DNA of 64,000 nt from NCBI RefSeq assembly GCF_013315695.1, contig NZ_CP054353.1; one strand, written 5' to 3'. Made by a program: the position numbers and the translations under genes. This DNA is from Escherichia coli. Lineage in GTDB: Bacteria > Pseudomonadota > Gammaproteobacteria > Enterobacterales > Enterobacteriaceae. Positions 4,657 to 20,990 of this stretch are shown here, one piece after another; positions within the stretch are counted from its first letter, which is position 1; each line of letters starts with the position of its first letter. The notes under the pieces are model-generated. The model saw nothing but the letters and a program-made list of their open reading frames with translations. It had not been told where the DNA came from and did no database searches.

Positions 4657-5391
4657 TTATCCTGCGCGTAATTTTTGTGCGACACGAACCGGATGCGCAG
4701 CGGCGCTGGCTTCCAGATCCAGGTCACGGCTTTGCAGCAACAATACCTGCGCTGCAACATCACCCAGCATCGCTTTAAAGCCGCCAATCTGGCGTGCAAA
4801 TACGTTATAGATAACGACCGCCGGAATCGCTGCCACGAGGCCGATTGCCGTTGCTAACAGAGCTTCTGCGATACCCGGCGCAACGACTGCCAGGTTAGTG
4901 GTCTGCGTTTGCGCGATACCAATAAAGCTGTTCATGATGCCCCAGACCGTACCAAACAGACCAACGAACGGCGAAATCGCGCCGATAGTCGCGAGATAGC
5001 CATTACCACGGCCCATTTGACGGCCCACAGCGGCGACCCGACGCTCCAGGCGGAAGCTGGTACGCTCTTTAATACCTTCGTTATCGTCGCTGCCTTCTGA
5101 CAGTTCCAGCTCATTCTGCGCTTCATTGAGCAAATGCAGGCTTAAGCTTTTGCTACCAAAATCAGCGGCGATATCGTTGGCCTGGTTTAAGGAACGCGCT
5201 TCAGCCAGCAGTTGCTGCTCGCGCTTAAGGCGACGCTTCTGATTGAAGAACTCTACGCTCTTACTGAAGAAGATTGCCCAGGTGACTACGGAGGCCAAAA
5301 TAAGCCCAATCATCACGCACTTAACGACAATATCGGCGTGCTGATACATACCCCAGACGGAAAGGTCCGTCTGCATTAAATTATTACCCAC
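4657..5391 (-). CDS. exbB: TonB-system energiser ExbB
   Basis: 244 aa, MotA/TolQ/ExbB-type. Confidence 0.9.
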   Translation of the reverse strand: MGNNLMQTDLSVWGMYQHADIVVKCVMIGLILASVVTWAIFFSKSVEFFNQKRRLKREQQLLAEARSLNQANDIAADFGSKSLSLHLLNEAQNELELSEGSDDNEGIKERTSFRLERRVAAVGRQMGRGNGYLATIGAISPFVGLFGTVWGIMNSFIGIAQTQTTNLAVVAPGIAEALLATAIGLVAAIPAVVIYNVFARQIGGFKAMLGDVAAQVLLLQSRDLDLEASAAAHPVRVAQKLRAG

Positions 5392-12292: not shown

Positions 12293-12336
12293 AAAAAAAT
12301 TCCCGGCAGCATTCTGTTACCGGGGATATTTTTTAA
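12293..12336. terminator. bidirectional rho-independent terminator between convergent yqhH and ygiQ
   Basis: GC hairpin tcccggcagc...ccgggga flanked by an A-run and a T-run. Confidence 0.55.
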
Positions 12337-14552
12337 CGTCCAACCGCCGCTTTAGGGCGTTTCTTCGCACCAGCATTCTGCAGGCGAGATTGCGTAGACG
12401 ACGCTTTTTTTGCCGTAGCAGGCGTCTGACGCTGGGTCGCCATCGGCGTATGTTTAGTCAACGCCGGGCGGGTATTGCGGTTCTGGCGACGAGCCTCACG
12501 CATCTCTTCAATGGTTGGCGCAGGCACTAAGCAATCGCGACGGCTGCCAATCAGATGCTTTTTGCCCATCGCTTCCAGCGCCTGGCGGATTAACGGCCAG
12601 TTTGCCGGATCGTGGTAACGCAACAACGCTTTATGCAGACGACGCTGTTTGTCGCCCTTCGGCACGAAGACGTCTTCACTCTTATAACCAATCTTCGCCA
12701 GCGGGTTTTTGCCGGTGTAATACATGGTGGTCGAGTTAGCCAGCGGCGACGGATAGAAGTTCTGCACCTGGTCGAGGCGGAAACGATGCTTTTTCAGCCA
12801 CAGCGCCAGATTCACCATATCTTCATCCCGCGTACCGGGGTGTGCCGAGATGAAATACGGGATCAGATACTGTTCTTTACCTGCCTGTTTCGAGTAAGTA
12901 TCGAACAGCTCTTTAAAGCGGTCATAGCTGCCCATGCCCGGCTTCATCATCTTCGATAACGGCCCTTCTTCGGTATGTTCCGGGGCAATCTTCAGATAAC
13001 CGCCAACGTGATGGGTCGCCAGCTCTTTGATATAGCGCGGATCTTCCACGGCGATGTCATAACGTACGCCGGAAGCGATCAGGATCTTTTTAATGCCTTT
13101 CAGATCACGCGCACGGCGATAGAGGTTGATCGTCGGTTCGTGGTTAGTGTCCATATGCGGACAAATATCCGGATAAACACACGACAAACGACGGCAGGTT
13201 TGCTCAGCGCGTGGCGATTTGCAGCGCAACATATACATGTTGGCAGTAGGCCCACCGAGATCGGAAATCACGCCCGTAAAACCTGGAACAGTGTCGCGGA
13301 TCGCTTCGATCTCATTAATAATCGAATCTTCGGAACGGCTCTGAATAATGCGCCCTTCGTGCTCGGTAATAGAACAGAAAGAGCAGCCGCCAAAGCAGCC
13401 ACGCATAATGTTGACCGAGAAACGAATCATTTCGTAAGCCGGAATTCGGGCATTACCGTAAGCCGGATGCGGCACGCGCTTGTACGGCAGCGCAAAGACG
13501 CTATCCATCTCTTCGGTAGAAAGCGGAATAGCAGGCGGGTTGATCCATACATAGCGGTCGCCATGTTTTTGCATCAATGCGCGGGCGCAGCCTGGGTTAG
13601 TTTCGTGGTGCAGAATGCGCGAAGCATGGGCGTACAGCACTTTATCGCCCTTCACTTTCTCGAAAGAAGGCAGCAACACGTAGGTTTTTTCCCACGGTTT
13701 CGGGCGTGGTGGCTGCACGGTTACAGCTTTGGCTTCCTGCTTTTTCGGAGCTACCGGTTTGTTATCCGCGCACGGCAAATCTTCGCCATACGGATGCGGG
13801 ATTGGGTCGATTTTCCCTGGGGTATCAAGACGGGTGGAATCCACACCGCTCCAGCCTGGCAACGCCTCTTTTACGATAATCGCGGTATTACGCACATCGC
13901 GGATTTCACTAATCGGCTCGCCCATCGCCAGACGGTGCGCCACTTCCACCAGCGGACGCTCACCGTTACCAAACATCAGCATGTCGGCTTTCGAATCCAC
14001 CAACACGGAACGGCGCACGGTATCGGACCAGTAATCATAATGCGCGGTACGGCGCAGGCTGGCCTCAATACCGCCGAGGATCACCGGCACATCTTTCCAC
14101 GCCTCTTTACAACGTTGGGTATAAACCAGTGTGGCGCGATCCGGACGCTTACCCGCGACATTATCTGGCGTGTAGGCATCGTCATGACGTAAACGGCGAT
14201 CGGCGGTATAGCGGTTGATCATCGAGTCCATGTTGCCTGCGGTAACGCCGAAAAACAGATTCGGTTTACCCAGACGCATGAAATCGTCTTTGCTGCTCCA
14301 GTCTGGCTGGGCGATGATCCCGACGCGAAAGCCCTGCGCTTCCAGCATACGACCGCAAATCGCCATCCCGAAGCTTGGGTGATCGACATACGCGTCGCCA
14401 GTAACCAAAATGATGTCGCAGCTATCCCAGCCAAGTTGATCCATCTCTTCACGTGACATCGGCAAAAACGGTGCCGGTCCAAAACAGGCGGCCCAGTACT
14501 GCGGCCAGGAGAACAGGTCGCGATCCGGTTGGATCAGGGAGATAGAGCTCAT
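12333..14552 (-). CDS. ygiQ: radical SAM superfamily protein (UPF0313)
   Basis: 739 aa; CxxxCxxC motif (CFGGCSFC). Confidence 0.85.
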
Positions 14553-14803
14553 TTTGCTTCCAGAAATGATAAAAAAATAATCAAAGGCCGGGGATTATAC
14601 GCTGTATCACGCGCGGAAATGAAGTGATGTTGATGAACGGTGGCGAAATACCCTGGTGAGGTTTTTCACTGCCCGACTTGGGCAAGCACATTTAAGGCTG
14701 GCGGTATCGTGGCAACTGCCGCTACTATTTATGCCGATCAGCAACGTTCAAATCATATTGCACGACGATCGGCTATCCGAGGACACCCACAGTAAGGCAA
14801 GGT

Positions 14804-15553
14804 ATGGAACAGGTTATTACAAAGCGCCGCTATTACGATATTGGTCTACAGATTGAAGAGCTGCTGTATTCAGGCGTATTTAAGGCCGGAGAACGCTTAC
14901 CTTCAGAACGTGAACTGAGCGAGCGGTTTAATACCAGCCGAACTACCATTCGTGAAGCCATCATTATGCTGGAACTGAAAGGCGTATTGAATGTGAAGCA
15001 AGGGTCAGGGATTTTCTTTGTCGACTCCACCGATAAGCTCAGCCAGAAATCATTAATGCCCTATTCAGAAATTGGCCCGTTTGAACTGTTGCAGGCGCGT
15101 CAGGTGATTGAGAGCAATATTACTGGTTTTGCAGCCAGCCAGATTAGCTTTAACGAGTTACAAGAGTTAAAGAAAATAATTAGGTTGCAGGAAAACGCTA
15201 TCGCTGCGGAAAGTGATAAATTTGAAGACCTGGATCACCGATTTCATAGCATTATTGCCGAAGCTACGCAAAATCGGGTACTCATCAAACAAGCCGCTGA
15301 ATTATGGCGGGCGGTACGTACAGAAAACCCCCGCTGGAAGAAACTTAACTACAAGTACCTGCATGAAAAGCATTTGCGTCTGCAATGGCTGGAAGATCAC
15401 CGGGCTATTTTCCTGGCTCTGCAACAGAAAGATTCAGAGCTCGCCAGGGAAGCCTCCTGGAGACACCTGGAAAACAGCAAAAATGAATTGATCAAAATCT
15501 TCAAACAAGACGCATCCATCAGCGATTTTGATGACTTTTTCTTCGCTCGTTAA
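14804..15553 (+). CDS. GntR/FadR-family transcriptional regulator
   Basis: 249 aa; N-terminal winged HTH (LPSERELSERFNTSRTTIREAI), FCD-type C-terminal domain. Confidence 0.8.
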   Translation: MEQVITKRRYYDIGLQIEELLYSGVFKAGERLPSERELSERFNTSRTTIREAIIMLELKGVLNVKQGSGIFFVDSTDKLSQKSLMPYSEIGPFELLQARQVIESNITGFAASQISFNELQELKKIIRLQENAIAAESDKFEDLDHRFHSIIAEATQNRVLIKQAAELWRAVRTENPRWKKLNYKYLHEKHLRLQWLEDHRAIFLALQQKDSELAREASWRHLENSKNELIKIFKQDASISDFDDFFFAR

Positions 15554-15875
15554 CCTTCATTAGTCCAGAGCTGGCGGGAAAAATAACGCCGGCTCTGCCT
15601 TCCGCCCTCCACTGGTACACGCTCTCTTTTTAATTGGTCTAATAAATCGACTATCATCAGATATCTTAGATTAGCGGCAATTATCCCAAAAACTGACTTC
15701 TAAAAAACTTTCCTTTCATTTTATTCATATAACTCATTGATAAAAATATAAATAACGCCTTGTTGTTCTGTTTCGTACTTTTATCTTTCTCTGCAAGCGT
15801 GATGCATCTCTCTGTTTTTGGCCTAGTGAATTATGTAAATTGGTCTACACACAAGCCACCAGGAGTAAGAGCATA

Positions 15876-17348
15876 ATGTCAGGGAACGAAAGTATCAATG
15901 CCGCCCACTATGATCAGGTAACCACCTGGCCTCGGGACGGGTTACAGGCAGATATTGTCCATATTGGTTTTGGCGCTTTTCATCGCGGACACCAGGCGGT
16001 CTACACGGATCTCACTAATCAACTTTCGGACACCCGCTGGGGGATCTTTGAGATCAACCTGTTTGGTGATGCTCAACTGATCGAAAACTTAAATGCACAA
16101 AATGGGCTGTTTTCGGTTGTGGAAACATCTGCATCGCAATCTACCTCACGCCTTGTGCGTTCGGTGGCTGGCGGTATTCATACCCCCAGAGATGGCATTG
16201 CCGCAGCAATCCATAAACTGGCTGAACCTCAGGTAAAAATCGTTTCATTAACCATCACCGAGAAAGGTTATTGCCTCGATCCGCAAACACGTTCACTTGA
16301 TCTCACCAATGGATTAATCCAACACGATCTACAAAACCCGGATGCGCCTCTGTCAGCTATTGGCGTGATCGTCTGTGCTTTGCAACAACGTAAAGCGATA
16401 GGACTCGCCGCTTTTAGTGTGCTCTCCTGTGACAACTTGCCAGACAATGGGCATCTGACGCGCAATGCCGTTCTCGGTTTTGCCCGACAACTGGACCAGC
16501 CCCTGGCTCAGTGGATCGAAGAAAATGTCTCATTTCCAGGCACGATGGTAGATCGCATTGTTCCGGCAATGACTGAATCGCAATTCGCCTTACTGGAAAC
16601 GAAAACCGGTTATGCCGATCCCTGCGGGATCGTCTGCGAATCATTTCGTCAGTGGGTGATCGAAGATAATTTTGTGCGCGGACGACCGAAATGGGATAAA
16701 GCCGGCGCGATGTTTGTCAGCAATGTTCAGCCTTATGAAGAGATGAAGTTACGCATGTTAAATGGTAGCCATTCATTTCTGGCTTATAACGGCTCGCTGG
16801 CAGGCTATGAGTTTATCTGGCAATGCATGGAAGACGCTAATTTTCGTTCCATTACCCACCAACTGATGATTAATGAACAAGCCCGAACACTTAATCCAGA
16901 CTTAAATATCAACATCCAGGAATACGCCGACCTGTTAATTGAACGCTTTAGCAACCGTAACGTTGCACACCGTACCGGGCAAATAGCCATGGACGGTTCA
17001 CAAAAGCTTCCCCAGCGTGCACTGACGCCCTGGCTGAAATTACATCAGCAAAAGCAAAACAATGCTGTTCTGTCACTGCTCGTTGCTGGTTGGTTGCATT
17101 ATGTCATTGATGCTGTTGAGAAAAGCCAGTCTGTCGCTGATCCAATGAATGACCAATTTCAGGCGCTAATAAAGGAACAACAAGACGCATGGCAACAGGC
17201 GCTCGCATTACTGCACCTTAGCGCCATATTTGGTGATTTAAGCAACCATCAGCCATTTATAAATGAAATAAAAATCGCCTTTGCGAATATAAAAAACAAA
17301 GGCATCAAGGCCACCATCAGCCAATTATTATCGGATGAGCAGAAATGA
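15876..17348 (+). CDS. mannitol-dehydrogenase-family oxidoreductase (UxuB/fructuronate reductase-like)
   Basis: About 490 aa from the ATG preceded by AGGAGT; family-level resemblance only. Confidence 0.75.
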   Translation: MSGNESINAAHYDQVTTWPRDGLQADIVHIGFGAFHRGHQAVYTDLTNQLSDTRWGIFEINLFGDAQLIENLNAQNGLFSVVETSASQSTSRLVRSVAGGIHTPRDGIAAAIHKLAEPQVKIVSLTITEKGYCLDPQTRSLDLTNGLIQHDLQNPDAPLSAIGVIVCALQQRKAIGLAAFSVLSCDNLPDNGHLTRNAVLGFARQLDQPLAQWIEENVSFPGTMVDRIVPAMTESQFALLETKTGYADPCGIVCESFRQWVIEDNFVRGRPKWDKAGAMFVSNVQPYEEMKLRMLNGSHSFLAYNGSLAGYEFIWQCMEDANFRSITHQLMINEQARTLNPDLNINIQEYADLLIERFSNRNVAHRTGQIAMDGSQKLPQRALTPWLKLHQQKQNNAVLSLLVAGWLHYVIDAVEKSQSVADPMNDQFQALIKEQQDAWQQALALLHLSAIFGDLSNHQPFINEIKIAFANIKNKGIKATISQLLSDEQK

Positions 17349-18361
17349 AAACATTAATTTGTCAGCAGCCTGGCGTTATGGAATATGTGGAAAAGGATAT
17401 TCCCACACCAGCAGATAATGAAGTGCTGTTAAAAATCAAAGCTGTGGGTATTTGTGGTACTGATATTCACGCTTTTGCCGGCAGACAGCCTTTTTTTAGC
17501 TACCCACGTGTATTAGGTCATGAAATATGCGCCGAAGCGGTTTCGCGAGGCAGCCAGTGCCAAACAGCACAATCAGGCCAGCGCTATTCCGTCATCCCAT
17601 GCATTCCGTGTGGCGAGTGCGCAGCCTGTCGGGAAGAGAAAACGAACTGCTGCGAACGTGTTTCGCTGTATGGCGTGCATCAGGATGGGGGTTTTAGTGA
17701 GTACCTTGCGGTACGTGAAGACAACCTTGTGCCTCTCCCTGACGAGGTCAGCGACAGTGCCGGAGCATTGGTTGAATGTTTCGCCATTGGTGCACATGCC
17801 GTTCGTCGGGCAGAGATCAAGGCTGAACAAAACGTACTGGTGGTTGGCGCTGGGCCAATCGGTCTGGCTACCGCGGCCATCGCCAGGGCTAAAGGGGCGC
17901 ATGTTGTTGTTGCTGATATTGATTGTCAACGTCGCCAGCACGTTGTGGATCATCTGGCAATTAATGTCTTCGACCCAACACAGGAAGGTTTTATTGCCGC
18001 GCTTAGTGAAGTATTTGGCGGCGAACTGGCTTGCGTAGTCCTGGATGCGACGGGAAATAAAGCTTCAATGAGTCATGATGTAAATCTTATTCGTCATGGC
18101 GGCAAAATTGTTTTCATCGGTTTGTACATTGGTGAACTTGTTATTGACGATCCGACCTTCCATAAAAAAGAGACAACGTTACTCAGCAGCCGCAATGCCA
18201 CACGGGAAGATTTTGCGTTGGTGATTGAACTGATGCGCAGCAATAAAATTCACGAAAATTTAATGAAAAACCAGGCATTCAATTTCTTTAGTGTTGGCGA
18301 AGATTACCAGCGTAACGTTGTAGAAAATAAAAATATGGTCAAGGGTGTGATCACTTTTTAA
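17345..18361 (+). CDS. zinc-dependent medium-chain alcohol/polyol dehydrogenase
   Basis: 338 aa; GHE zinc motif, GAGPIGL NAD-binding motif; 4-bp ATGA overlap with the upstream gene. Confidence 0.8.
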   Translation: MKTLICQQPGVMEYVEKDIPTPADNEVLLKIKAVGICGTDIHAFAGRQPFFSYPRVLGHEICAEAVSRGSQCQTAQSGQRYSVIPCIPCGECAACREEKTNCCERVSLYGVHQDGGFSEYLAVREDNLVPLPDEVSDSAGALVECFAIGAHAVRRAEIKAEQNVLVVGAGPIGLATAAIARAKGAHVVVADIDCQRRQHVVDHLAINVFDPTQEGFIAALSEVFGGELACVVLDATGNKASMSHDVNLIRHGGKIVFIGLYIGELVIDDPTFHKKETTLLSSRNATREDFALVIELMRSNKIHENLMKNQAFNFFSVGEDYQRNVVENKNMVKGVITF

Positions 18362-18371
18362 GGGAACAAAT

Positions 18372-19382
18372 ATGACAACTGTTTATGTCAGTGAAGAAAA
18401 TTTAAAATCACTGGTGCACCACAAATTACATACCGCCGGGCTGGATACCGACACCACACAACAGGTGACAGATGTTTTAGTACATGCCGATATTACAGGT
18501 GTGCATTCACATGGTGTTATGCGTGTCGAACATTATTGCACCCGCCTTGCTGCCGGAGGGTTAAATAAAGCCCCGCAGTTTAGCATTGAGCAAATTTCAC
18601 CGTCAGTGGCCATTCTCGACTCTGACGACGGAATGGGGCATTCCGCATTAATTAGCGCCACTGAGCACGCTATTAAACTGGCCCAGCAAGAGGGCCTCGG
18701 TTTTGTTAGCGTTAAAAACACGTCTCACTGTGGTGCGTTATCTTATTTTGCAGAGATGATCACCAACAAAGGGTTGGTTGCTATCGTAATGACGCAAACC
18801 GATACCTGTGTGGCTCCCCATGGCGGCGCCGAGCGCTTTTTGGGAACTAACCCCATCGCCTTTGGTTTCCCGGTGGAAAACAGCCATCCGATGATTGTTG
18901 ATATGGCGACCAGTGCCACGGCTTTCGGCAAAATACTTCATGCAAAGGAAACCGGAAAACATATTGGTGAAGGGCTGGCGATAGATAAAAACGGTTATGG
19001 CACCACTGATCCGTATAAGATTGAAAACCTGCTACCTTTCGGCCAACACAAAGGTTCAGGCATTGCACTGGCTATTGATGCACTGACTGGCGTGCTGATG
19101 AATGCGAATTTTGGCAACCATATTGTTCGCATGTATGGTGATTATGACAAGATGCGTAAGCTGGCAAGTTTGGTTATTGCCATCGATCCGAAAAAGCTCG
19201 GCAATCCTGTTTTTGCAAAAACCATGGCGCAAATGGTCACGGAGTTGCATGCCGTTAAACCGGCTCCCGGTATCGAAAAAGTGTTAGCGCCGAACGATCC
19301 GCAAATGCACTACAAAGAAAAATGCCAACAGGAAGGTATTCCGGTTCCGGCAGGAATATTCCATTATCTGGCAGAGAATTAA
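18372..19382 (+). CDS. Ldh_2-family dehydrogenase (malate/L-lactate or diketogulonate reductase-like)
   Basis: 336 aa; family-level resemblance (YiaK/AllD-like). Confidence 0.75.
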   Translation: MTTVYVSEENLKSLVHHKLHTAGLDTDTTQQVTDVLVHADITGVHSHGVMRVEHYCTRLAAGGLNKAPQFSIEQISPSVAILDSDDGMGHSALISATEHAIKLAQQEGLGFVSVKNTSHCGALSYFAEMITNKGLVAIVMTQTDTCVAPHGGAERFLGTNPIAFGFPVENSHPMIVDMATSATAFGKILHAKETGKHIGEGLAIDKNGYGTTDPYKIENLLPFGQHKGSGIALAIDALTGVLMNANFGNHIVRMYGDYDKMRKLASLVIAIDPKKLGNPVFAKTMAQMVTELHAVKPAPGIEKVLAPNDPQMHYKEKCQQEGIPVPAGIFHYLAEN

Positions 19383-19454: not shown

Positions 19455-20264
19455 ATGAAAGCACTTCGTCCTCTGACGGCATCGCTTATGCTGTTAACCA
19501 GTTGTTTATTAATATCTAATACCACACTGGCAAAAATAACATTAAAACTGAGTCATAATCAGGATAAAAGCCATGCTGTCCATAAAGCATTAAGCTATTT
19601 AGCGGATAAAACCAAAGAGTATTCTAATGGTGAATTAGTTATTCGCATTTACCCAAATGCAACATTAGGTAATGAGCGTGAATCACTGGAATTAATGAAC
19701 TCCGGTGCATTACAGATGGTTAAGGTTAATGCCGCATCACTAGAATCATTTGCTCCAGATTACAGCCTTTTCAGTCTGCCGTTCTTATTCCGCGACCGTG
19801 ATCACTATTATCGTGTTCTGCAAAGTGATTTAGGTAAAAAAATACTTAATTCATCAGAAAGCAAAGGTTTTGTTGGTATTACGTACTATGACGGCGGTGC
19901 GAGAAGTTTTTATTCCAATAAACCGATTACAAAACCTGAAGATTTAGCGGGAATGAAAATCAGGGTTCAACAAAGCCCCAGCGCCATTGCAATGATGAAA
20001 GCACTCGGTGGTGTCGCTACCCCGATGGCGCAAGGCGAACTCTACACCGCACTTCAGCAAGGTGTGGTTGATGGCGGAGAGAACAATACCGTTGTCTATT
20101 CCGATATGCGTCACGCCGAAGTCGCAAAAGTCTATTCACGTGATGAACACACCATGGTACCTGATGTGTTAATTATCAGCACCGACGTGTTGAATAAACT
20201 TGGTGATAAAGAGCGCACGGCATTATTAAAAGCAGCCGGTGATGCTGCCAACTTACTGATTTAG
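19455..20264 (+). pseudogene. TRAP transporter solute-binding protein (DctP family), 3'-truncated by IS1
   Basis: Signal peptide plus DctP-like sequence for 261 codons; last 8 codons (GDAANLLI*) are encoded by the IS1 terminal repeat. Confidence 0.75.
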
Positions 20265-20292
20265 TGTATGATGGTGTTTTTGAGGTGCTCCA

Positions 20293-20568
20293 GTGGCTTC
20301 TGTTTCTATCAGCTGTCCCTCCTGTTCAGCTACTGACGGGGTGGTGCGTAACGGCAAAAGCACCGCCGGACATCAGCGCTATCTCTGCTCTCACTGCCGT
20401 AAAACATGGCAACTGCAGTTCACTTACACCGCTTCTCAACCCGGTACGCACCAGAAAATCATTGATATGGCCATGAATGGCGTTGGATGCCGGGCAACAG
20501 CCCGCATTATGGGCGTTGGCCTCAACACGATTTTACGTCACTTAAAAAACTCAGGCCGCAGTCGGTAA
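20293..20568 (+). CDS. insA: IS1 InsA
   Basis: 91 aa; zinc-finger/HTH protein typical of IS1. Confidence 0.9.
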
Positions 20569-20990
20569 CCTCGCGCATACAGCCGGGCAGTGACGTCATC
20601 GTCTGCGCGGAAATGGACGAACAGTGGGGCTATGTCGGGGCTAAATCGCGCCAGCGCTGGCTGTTTTACGCGTATGACAGGCTCCGGAAGACGGTTGTTG
20701 CGCACGTATTCGGTGAACGCACTATGGCGACGCTGGGGCGTCTTATGAGCCTGCTGTCACCCTTTGACGTGGTGATATGGATGACGGATGGCTGGCCGCT
20801 GTATGAATCCCGCCTGAAGGGAAAGCTGCACGTAATCAGCAAGCGATATACGCAGCGAATTGAGCGGCATAACCTGAATCTGAGGCAGCACCTGGCACGG
20901 CTGGGACGGAAGTCGCTGTCGTTCTCAAAATCGGTGGAGCTGCATGACAAAGTCATCGGGCATTATCTGAACATAAAACACTATCAATAA
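20487..20990 (+). CDS. insB: IS1 InsB frame (transposase made by an InsAB' frameshift)
   Basis: 167-aa ORF overlapping insA in the -1 frame. Confidence 0.9.

Follow-up and report, generated by a model that had tools for sequence, protein, structure and literature searches.

Candidate operator boxes for a UxuR-like repressor upstream of a dehydrogenase operon on an Escherichia coli accessory island

The 322-bp spacer at positions 15554–15875 of a 64,000-nucleotide stretch of an Escherichia coli chromosome (contig NZ_CP054353.1; the whole stretch is hereafter referred to as the window) separates the gene of a GntR-family regulator from three dehydrogenase genes on the same strand, and it harbors a short sequence repeated twice. 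An earlier note on this DNA considered the two copies, together with a related 9-mer, as half-sites typical of the GntR family located in the leader of the dehydrogenase operon, and proposed them as candidate operators for the adjacent regulator. This raises the question of whether the repeat has a function and, if so, which protein reads it. According to the analysis reported here, the spacer is likely to embed four boxes for a UxuR-like repressor of the FadR subfamily, most probably the product of the adjacent gene; the boxes, their spacing and conservation, the type of motif, and the kinship of the regulator are what the sequences show, while the identity of the binder, repression, the CRP dependence, the transcription start, looping, and the inducer are what we infer from them.

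From a repeated 10-mer to four boxes

The two exact copies of the 10-mer AATTGGTCTA lie on the plus strand at 15632–15641 and 15838–15847, and the related CTGGTACAC at 15612–15620, in agreement with the earlier description; the second copy is indeed close to the start codon, ending 28 nt before the ATG at 15876. As stand-alone evidence, the exact 10-mer was discarded: direct repeats of at least 10 nt arose in 6% (mononucleotide) to 9% (first-order Markov) of the shuffled 322-nt spacers (P = 0.06–0.09), and the 10-mer varies from one E. coli allele to another. The identity of the two copies is allele-specific, the box embedding the second one (O4, see below) reading AATTGGTATA in UPEC_U013. Allowing one mismatch, five matches to the 10-mer were retrieved from the window versus 3.3 expected. 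In contrast, the core TTGG[TC][ACT][CT]A occurs three times on the plus strand of the spacer, versus 0.04 expected from the window-wide rate, and never on its minus strand; this core is not due to chance.

The spacer contains four boxes, all on the plus strand, organized in two pairs, each of them spaced exactly 22 bp: a distal one (O1 and O2) and a proximal one (O3 and O4). O1 (CCACTGGTACACGCTCTC, with CTGGTACAC as its core; 15609–15626) is a weak box placed 22 bp upstream of O2; its left half scores 5.2 (P = 0.003), it has no right half, and the whole site scores −1.4. O2 (TAATTGGTCTAATAAATC; 15631–15648; 18.3 bits), a strong candidate operator, holds the first 10-mer. O3 (TTTTTGGCCTAGTGAATT; 15815–15832; 12.1 bits), a half-site-only box, is the fourth one and was absent from the earlier note, whereas O4 (AAATTGGTCTACACACAA; 15837–15854; 11.4 bits), the proximal candidate operator, holds the second 10-mer; O3 and O4 end about 20 nt before the start codon. 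All four boxes show TGGT or TGGC after A/T, i.e., a T-K-G-T core in an A/T-rich half-site, and the P values of their left halves are ≤ 1e-4 for O2 and O4 and 0.003–0.004 for O1 and O3. The idea of a GntR-type motif stands, but the elements are four in two pairs rather than two plus one; in the same way, the region does precede the dehydrogenase operon, but it is better described as a promoter/operator spacer than as a transcribed leader.

The whole-site scores given above were computed with a weight matrix whose retraining used 30 sites of the other loci and none of the window. Its consensus is TAATTGGTATACCAATTT, with a distance of 2 nt between GT and AC, as in the UxuR-type palindrome. Only 12 positions of the 64-kb window reach 10 bits or more, among them O2, O3, and O4, all within 322 bp, and O2 is the top match of the whole window. 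Furthermore, a k-mer count of the spacers, which was unseeded, returned AATTGGT as the leading non-trivial 7-mer, with 11 occurrences in seven out of eight non-redundant spacers. In distant loci many boxes are plain palindromes (e.g., AAACTGGTATACCAATAC, CGAATGGTACACCAATAT, TTTATGGTATACCAATAT, and AAATTGGTTAACCAAAAA). These data point to the 10-mer as the left half plus the center of a degenerate UxuR-type palindrome of 16–18 bp; the boxes look like direct repeats because mainly the left half, AATTGGT(C/A)TA, survives in the window.

The strain analysed here carries a peculiar O3, reading TTGGCCTA rather than the common TTGGTCTA, with a T-to-C change at 15822 within the TTGGT core. A T is present at this position in five other E. 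coli and E. albertii alleles and in every other genus examined, the C being unique to this strain. O3 scores 12.1 bits here versus 16.7–19.5 bits in the Escherichia, Klebsiella, and Pseudocitrobacter alleles with TTGGTCTA; as the change brings a score of about 19 bits down to 12, the operon may be less tightly shut off in this lineage.

Conservation across orthologous loci

A scan of genome contigs for the regulator provided four loci (from E. whittamii, E. albertii, a second E. coli allele, and Klebsiella spallanzanii), while the more distant orthologs were retrieved through a protein search followed by contig look-ups. The further loci belong to Pseudocitrobacter, an E. coli locus next to gyrB, Salmonella Kentucky, Budvicia, three metagenomic contigs, and Agarivorans and Vibrio. 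The motif search in orthologous promoters, which had been suggested as a check in the earlier note, revealed no loss of the motif: it is conserved in all 12 enterobacterial loci, and the pairing of regulator and boxes was seen in 12 loci.

The alignment of the Escherichia and Klebsiella spacers revealed divergence, indels, and an insertion similar to repetitive extragenic palindromic (REP) elements nearly throughout, the only two conserved places being those of the box pairs, i.e., the distal one (YTGGTAYAC, 22 bp, AATTGGTCTAAT) and the proximal one (TTTTTGGTCTAGTGAATTATGTAAATTGGTCTACAC). The boxes are conserved islands also among the E. coli alleles. All the Escherichia alleles keep the YTGGTAYAC sequence of O1; Klebsiella and Pseudocitrobacter, too, have a box at −22.

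The spacing of the proximal pair is constant. When distances from 14 to 31 bp were scanned, 22 bp was the best-scoring one in 10 out of 10 loci, and it was also found in two additional loci (L019 and L020), i.e., in 12 out of 12 enterobacterial loci. From the start of O4 to the ATG there are 31–46 nt in the 10 loci in which this distance was determined, and the recurrent layout consists of a CRP-like site (10 out of 12 loci), O3, 22 bp, O4, and 31–46 nt to the ATG. The distance of the distal site from O4, measured in 10 loci (L019 and L020 lie outside this measurement), is 183–214 bp in nine of them and 265 bp in E. whittamii. In the latter (locus L002), a palindromic insertion similar to REP or bacterial interspersed mosaic elements (…GCCTGATACGCGTAGCGCATCAGGC…), located at about 4850–4960 between the distal and the proximal boxes, accounts for the 265 bp. 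A constant helical phase between distal and proximal operators was not found over these distances (183–214 bp, and 265 bp with the REP insert).

As regards the right halves of the proximal boxes, that of O3 is at background level in five out of six loci tested (P = 0.15–0.69), the copy of the gyrB locus being the sixth (P = 0.004), and O3 appears to be essentially a conserved half-site. The right half of O4 is weak in the window (P = 0.03) and strong in Budvicia, Salmonella, and locus L015.

The motif was also found next to a different set of genes. In Vibrio astriarenae (locus L013, 4700–5960), a regulator ortholog with 65% identity lies beside an agarase gene, a gene for a LacY-like transporter, and a DUF386 gene, with no dehydrogenase operon; in this locus, which was not used in training the matrix, the TTGGT..ACCAA motif precedes the gene of the regulator as well as that of the transporter. 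The regulator family thus seems to have been co-opted for diverse sugar pathways without losing its motif.

The second-best match of the window (14.1 bits) is a box-like sequence, ATATTGGTCTACAGATTG, at 14838–14855 on the plus strand, a near-copy absent from the earlier note that falls within codons 12–17 of the regulator gene and includes a rare CTA codon. It is conserved in Escherichia and K. spallanzanii and partly in Pseudocitrobacter. Nevertheless, its role as an autoregulatory operator was rejected since L019 (90% identical) and L020 (86%) lose it, through a synonymous and an amino-acid change, respectively, and yet keep the spacer boxes; synonymous changes also abolish it in orthologs with 75–79% identity. 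It probably arose by chance from the codons that specify D-I-G-L-Q-I. Upstream of the regulator gene no operator was detected either: the one place there that reaches 10 bits, at 14563, is an A/T run of low complexity.

The regulator, its relatives, and the competing readings

The gene adjacent to the spacer (14804–15553, plus strand) codes for a FadR-subfamily GntR regulator of 249 amino acids, with the Pfam GntR and FCD domains. Its best NCBIfam matches are UxuR (191.7 bits, with a cutoff of 442) and ExuR (184 bits, with a cutoff of 396), followed by LldR, PdhR, NanR, and GlcC, and it shares 38% identity with both the UxuR and the ExuR of E. coli K-12. With this degree of identity and a score far under the UxuR equivalog cutoff, the protein is not a UxuR ortholog; judged from these figures, it is a separate UxuR/ExuR paralog borne by an accessory island. 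Its helix-turn-helix stretch hardly varies across orthologs and resembles the corresponding stretches of UxuR and ExuR closely.

According to PMC4494728, the sites of the FadR subfamily share TKGT/ACMA boxes, with a GT-AC distance of 2 nt for UxuR and 3 nt for ExuR. UxuR, which belongs to the same GntR/FadR and FCD subfamily and has a closely similar recognition-helix region, is a close term of comparison: its operators and the island boxes are of the same palindrome type, TTGGT-N2-ACCAA, and both precede genes for sugar-acid dehydrogenases. When the matrix derived from the island loci was applied to K-12, it scored 12.9 and 14.3 bits in the gntP/uxuA spacer, which UxuR binds in genomic SELEX (systematic evolution of ligands by exponential enrichment; PMC5934670), and 17.6 bits upstream of uxuR; the SELEX data cannot include the island because K-12 lacks it. 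The two systems differ in the central dinucleotide (CT in the island clade versus AT for UxuR) and in the layout: on the island, two boxes stand in a fixed 22-bp tandem, O3 is reduced to a half-site, and a distal site lies some 200 bp upstream, whereas the distances between the uxu sites of K-12 are 106 and 20 bp. ExuR is an equally close paralog, with a hexuronate/sugar-acid regulon and TTGGT/ACCAA half-sites like those of the island boxes; it differs in its GT-AC distance (3 nt versus the 2 nt found here), and no match of at least 10 bits was obtained in the K-12 uxaC/exuT spacer.

In principle, such a likeness might mean that the boxes are mainly occupied by the host chromosomal UxuR (possibly with ExuR), the operon being part of the hexuronate regulon and the adjacent regulator playing a minor or different role. 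It weighs in favor of this scenario, and against a purely local regulation, that the motif derived from the orthologs is so close to that of UxuR that the host protein could bind or co-bind, the K-12 gntP/uxuA and uxuR-upstream sites scoring 12.9–17.6 bits and the helix-turn-helix regions of the two proteins (and of ExuR) being very similar; moreover, the likely products of the UxuB-like and YjjN/LgoD-like enzymes would feed the UxuA/UxaA pathways. We nevertheless regard it as rather unlikely: in all the chromosomal contexts and genera examined, the Vibrio ortholog by a different operon among them, the boxes are found with the island regulator; it would be difficult to account for a dedicated local regulator, whose DNA-binding domain is invariant, were the boxes not its targets; and the lack of a match in the uxaC/exuT spacer argues against ExuR.

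The operators of LldR and PdhR (AATTGGT-N3-ACCAATT) possess a half-site, AATTGGT, identical to that of the island, and the PdhR site lists include TTTGGTCTnACCAAT variants; however, the two proteins are more distant (95 and 91 bits in NCBIfam) and their operators have a 3-nt center, in contrast to the 2 nt of the orthologous palindromes. In the case of LldR, two operators flank the promoter and looping has been proposed, an arrangement resembling the distal-plus-proximal layout described here.

A further possibility is that the boxes are read as true direct repeats in the manner of NanR, a member of the FadR subfamily recognizing (GGTATA)3, with one half-site per dimer and a higher-order complex assembled on the 22-bp-phased boxes. 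The four boxes of the window do share the same orientation, none being on the minus strand, and their TGGT(A/C)TA core resembles the TGGTATAW direct repeats of NanR (PMC4494728), which is also among the closest solved structures for the regulator; in addition, O3 lacks a right half in five out of six loci and yet is strictly conserved and phase-locked to O4. On the other hand, the distal sites of the orthologs and several O4 sites are good palindromes (e.g., TGGTATACCA and TGGTTAACCA), as are many orthologous sites in general, unlike the NanR repeats; the latter are contiguous, whereas the island boxes are 22 bp apart and their pairs about 200 bp apart; and, according to the aligned ranges, the regulator is devoid of about 23 N-terminal residues present in NanR. 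Taken together, these observations make a NanR-like reading improbable.

Finally, it is very improbable that the regulator is an activator (or a dual regulator) with the boxes as activator sites, or that the repeats are a chance similarity or ordinary promoter sequence without a binding function: the bare 10-mer repeat is only marginally unlikely and some FadR-family proteins, including FadR itself, also activate, but chance is ruled out by the conservation of sequence, spacing, and position in 12 loci together with the matrix enrichment, and activation is disfavored by the location of O4, which is predicted to overlap the core promoter or the transcription start, as expected of a repressor site.

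Promoter, mechanism, and the accessory island

The reading of the boxes as repressor sites depends on where the promoter lies. A CRP-like site (CGTGATGCATCTCTCT; 15798–15813, plus strand) matches TGTGA-N6-TCACA at seven out of ten positions; in 10 loci, a site of this type (6–9 out of 10) has its center 11.5–13.5 bp ahead of the O3 core TTGGT, and those of Klebsiella, Pseudocitrobacter, and Salmonella reach nine out of ten. In the window, O3 and O4 follow this site immediately, at 28–61 nt from the start codon. A random stretch of 45 starts gives a match of at least eight out of ten with P = 0.014, the site of the window being a seven. No consensus sigma-70 promoter was found on the plus strand around the proximal boxes of the window and of three orthologous spacers, nor could a −10 element be fixed by eye near them; the absence of such a consensus fits an activator-dependent promoter without a −35 element, which would presumably depend on CRP. 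If the center of the CRP-like site (15805.5) is placed at −41.5, as in a class II CRP-dependent promoter, transcription would start near 15847, inside O4; in that case, O3 would cover the promoter spacer, while O4 would probably overlap the −10 element and the transcription start. Since O4 lies 31–46 nt from the ATG, immediately ahead of the ribosome-binding site, there is no room for a promoter downstream of it, and thus a repressor position is the natural reading.

The mechanism that we propose for the local repressor is as follows. Each box would be a degenerate copy of the palindrome AATTGGTATACCAATT, with GT and AC 2 nt apart; O3 and O4, being 22 bp (about two helical turns) apart, would be exposed on the same DNA face, and two repressor dimers bound to them would cover the spacer, the −10 element, and the start of a CRP-dependent promoter without a −35 element. 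The bound repressor would block RNA polymerase and keep the operon off until a sugar acid imported by the tripartite ATP-independent periplasmic (TRAP) transport system, or a pathway intermediate, acts as an inducer and releases it. The distal O1 and O2, about 200 bp upstream, would represent auxiliary operators, probably acting via cooperative binding or looping.

Some points weigh against this reading. In the window, right half-sites are lacking in O1 and O3 and have P = 0.03–0.04 in O2 and O4, O1 fails the weight matrix (−1.4), and the CRP-like site reaches only seven out of ten; no CRP-like site is evident in L019 and L020. The varying helical phase between the distal and the proximal sites represents weak evidence against a rigid loop. 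Furthermore, the matrix was seeded from the boxes of the window before being retrained, so that the discovery was not fully blind, and the sole paper found to describe the island (PMC12928451) relies on in silico annotation.

A bolder scenario, which we put forward as a tentative possibility, is that a third paralog of the UxuR/ExuR type, carried by a mobile sugar-acid cassette, represses through an obligate phase-locked module in which a half-site-only O3 is followed at exactly 22 bp by a semi-palindromic O4, with an auxiliary pair some 200 bp farther upstream. Repression would then require a tetramer or a larger assembly, which may be looped, joining a UxuR-like reading of palindromes and a NanR-like cooperative reading of half-sites; as its motif differs little from the UxuR one, the cassette would, wherever it is inserted, also become connected to the hexuronate regulon of the host.

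Other explanations for parts of the spacer were discarded. No Rfam family matches the spacer, and an RNA leader or riboswitch was rejected, the only Rfam match being a tmRNA_permuted hit of 22.7 bits (versus a threshold of 47) that falls in the regulator gene and is due to chance. The distal pair might be a mere relic of the promoter of a lost divergent gene for an enolase-superfamily (MR_MLE) dehydratase. Some copies of the cassette carry this gene between the regulator and the operon; in Salmonella Kentucky it has decayed to fragments inside a "spacer" of 1,232 bp. However, where the MR_MLE gene is still present, additional boxes lie beside it and the site some 200 bp ahead of O4 is retained as well, and no remnant of an MR_MLE gene was found in the spacer of the window. 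Just 3' of the stop codon of the regulator gene, a stable hairpin (15566–15597, plus strand; 11-nt arms, 91% complementary, no U tract) folds at −21.7 kcal/mol (z = −2.5) and is kept in other Escherichia alleles; it could be a 3'-end or partial-terminator element limiting read-through into the operon. In locus L004 (E. coli SCPM), one of its stem pairs is changed on both sides, from A-U to U-G.

The whole locus belongs to an accessory island of the E. coli chromosome, inserted after ygiQ (12333–14552, minus strand). In K-12, which is devoid of the island, ftsP comes directly after ygiQ. The island was found in 1,212 out of 5,426 complete E. coli genomes (about 22%), among them well-known extraintestinal pathogenic strains, and it corresponds to the genomic region that is listed as "GR 21 ygiQ..ftsP" in pathogenic strains and whose annotation is so far purely in silico (PMC12928451). 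The candidate regulated operon (15876–19382, plus strand) comprises, according to Pfam, NCBIfam, and RefSeq, a UxuB-like gene of the mannitol-dehydrogenase family (15876–17348; 49% to UxuB), a YjjN/LgoD-like Zn-dependent alcohol dehydrogenase gene (17345–18361; 55% to YjjN/LgoD), and an Ldh_2 oxidoreductase gene (18372–19382). The list of open reading frames starts the first gene at TTG 15840, but RefSeq and the Shine-Dalgarno sequence AGGAG (15861–15865, plus strand) favor the ATG at 15876–15878; the resulting N-terminus, MSGNES, is common to the orthologs. In all the enterobacterial orthologous loci with contigs long enough, the regulator is followed by an identical operon gene order, and a comparison of loci L007, L009, L010, and L015 with the window disclosed the cassette of the regulator and the three dehydrogenases, with the boxes accompanying the regulator, at no fewer than six different places on the chromosome (behind ygiQ, gyrB, or speA, close to fis/prmA, and elsewhere).

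A similar set of genes, although not of operators, is that of the L-gulonate pathway of Haemophilus influenzae (GulPQM TRAP, GulD, UxuB, UxuA, KdgK, and KdgA; PMC5788505), which shares with the island a TRAP transporter, a Zn-dependent dehydrogenase, and a UxuB-like reductase; the island differs in having the additional Ldh_2 oxidoreductase and no dehydratase, kinase, or aldolase in this form.

In the strain of the window, the locus shows signs of decay, namely the point change in O3 and the loss of the transporter. Downstream of the operon, the gene for the TRAP substrate-binding protein (19455–20264, plus strand; DctP domain) is truncated, coding for 269 amino acids versus 327 in the intact protein, with an IS1 annotated directly downstream; a second IS1 copy, in inverted orientation, has flipped parC-plsC-ftsP, and only a stub of the TRAP large permease gene is left beside this copy. 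The rearranged part covers 19455–20990 and extends farther downstream. The transporter of the operon has therefore been destroyed by IS1, whereas the island is intact in UPEC_U013, which harbors dctPQM-like genes, and in Pseudocitrobacter. In locus L018 (E. coli Z1323CEC0015), RefSeq marks the mannitol-dehydrogenase-family gene of the island as frameshifted, a further sign of island decay in some lineages.

On the whole, the spacer and the adjacent gene most likely represent an uncharacterized repressor-operator pair of the UxuR/ExuR type, with a textbook local arrangement and an unusually rigid layout, whose distinguishing traits would be the rigid 22-bp tandem, the half-site-only O3, and the distal auxiliary site. 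Knowledge of the motif, of the protein likely to act as the repressor, and of a probable dependence on CRP provides a directly testable reporter design, which could be used to screen sugar acids (L-gulonate and L-galactonate-like compounds) for the inducer and, hence, for the substrate of the pathway. Moreover, the near-identity to the UxuR motif predicts a cross-talk between the acquired cassette and the core hexuronate regulon, and such a cross-talk would bear on the way in which horizontally acquired catabolic modules are integrated into the regulatory network of their host.

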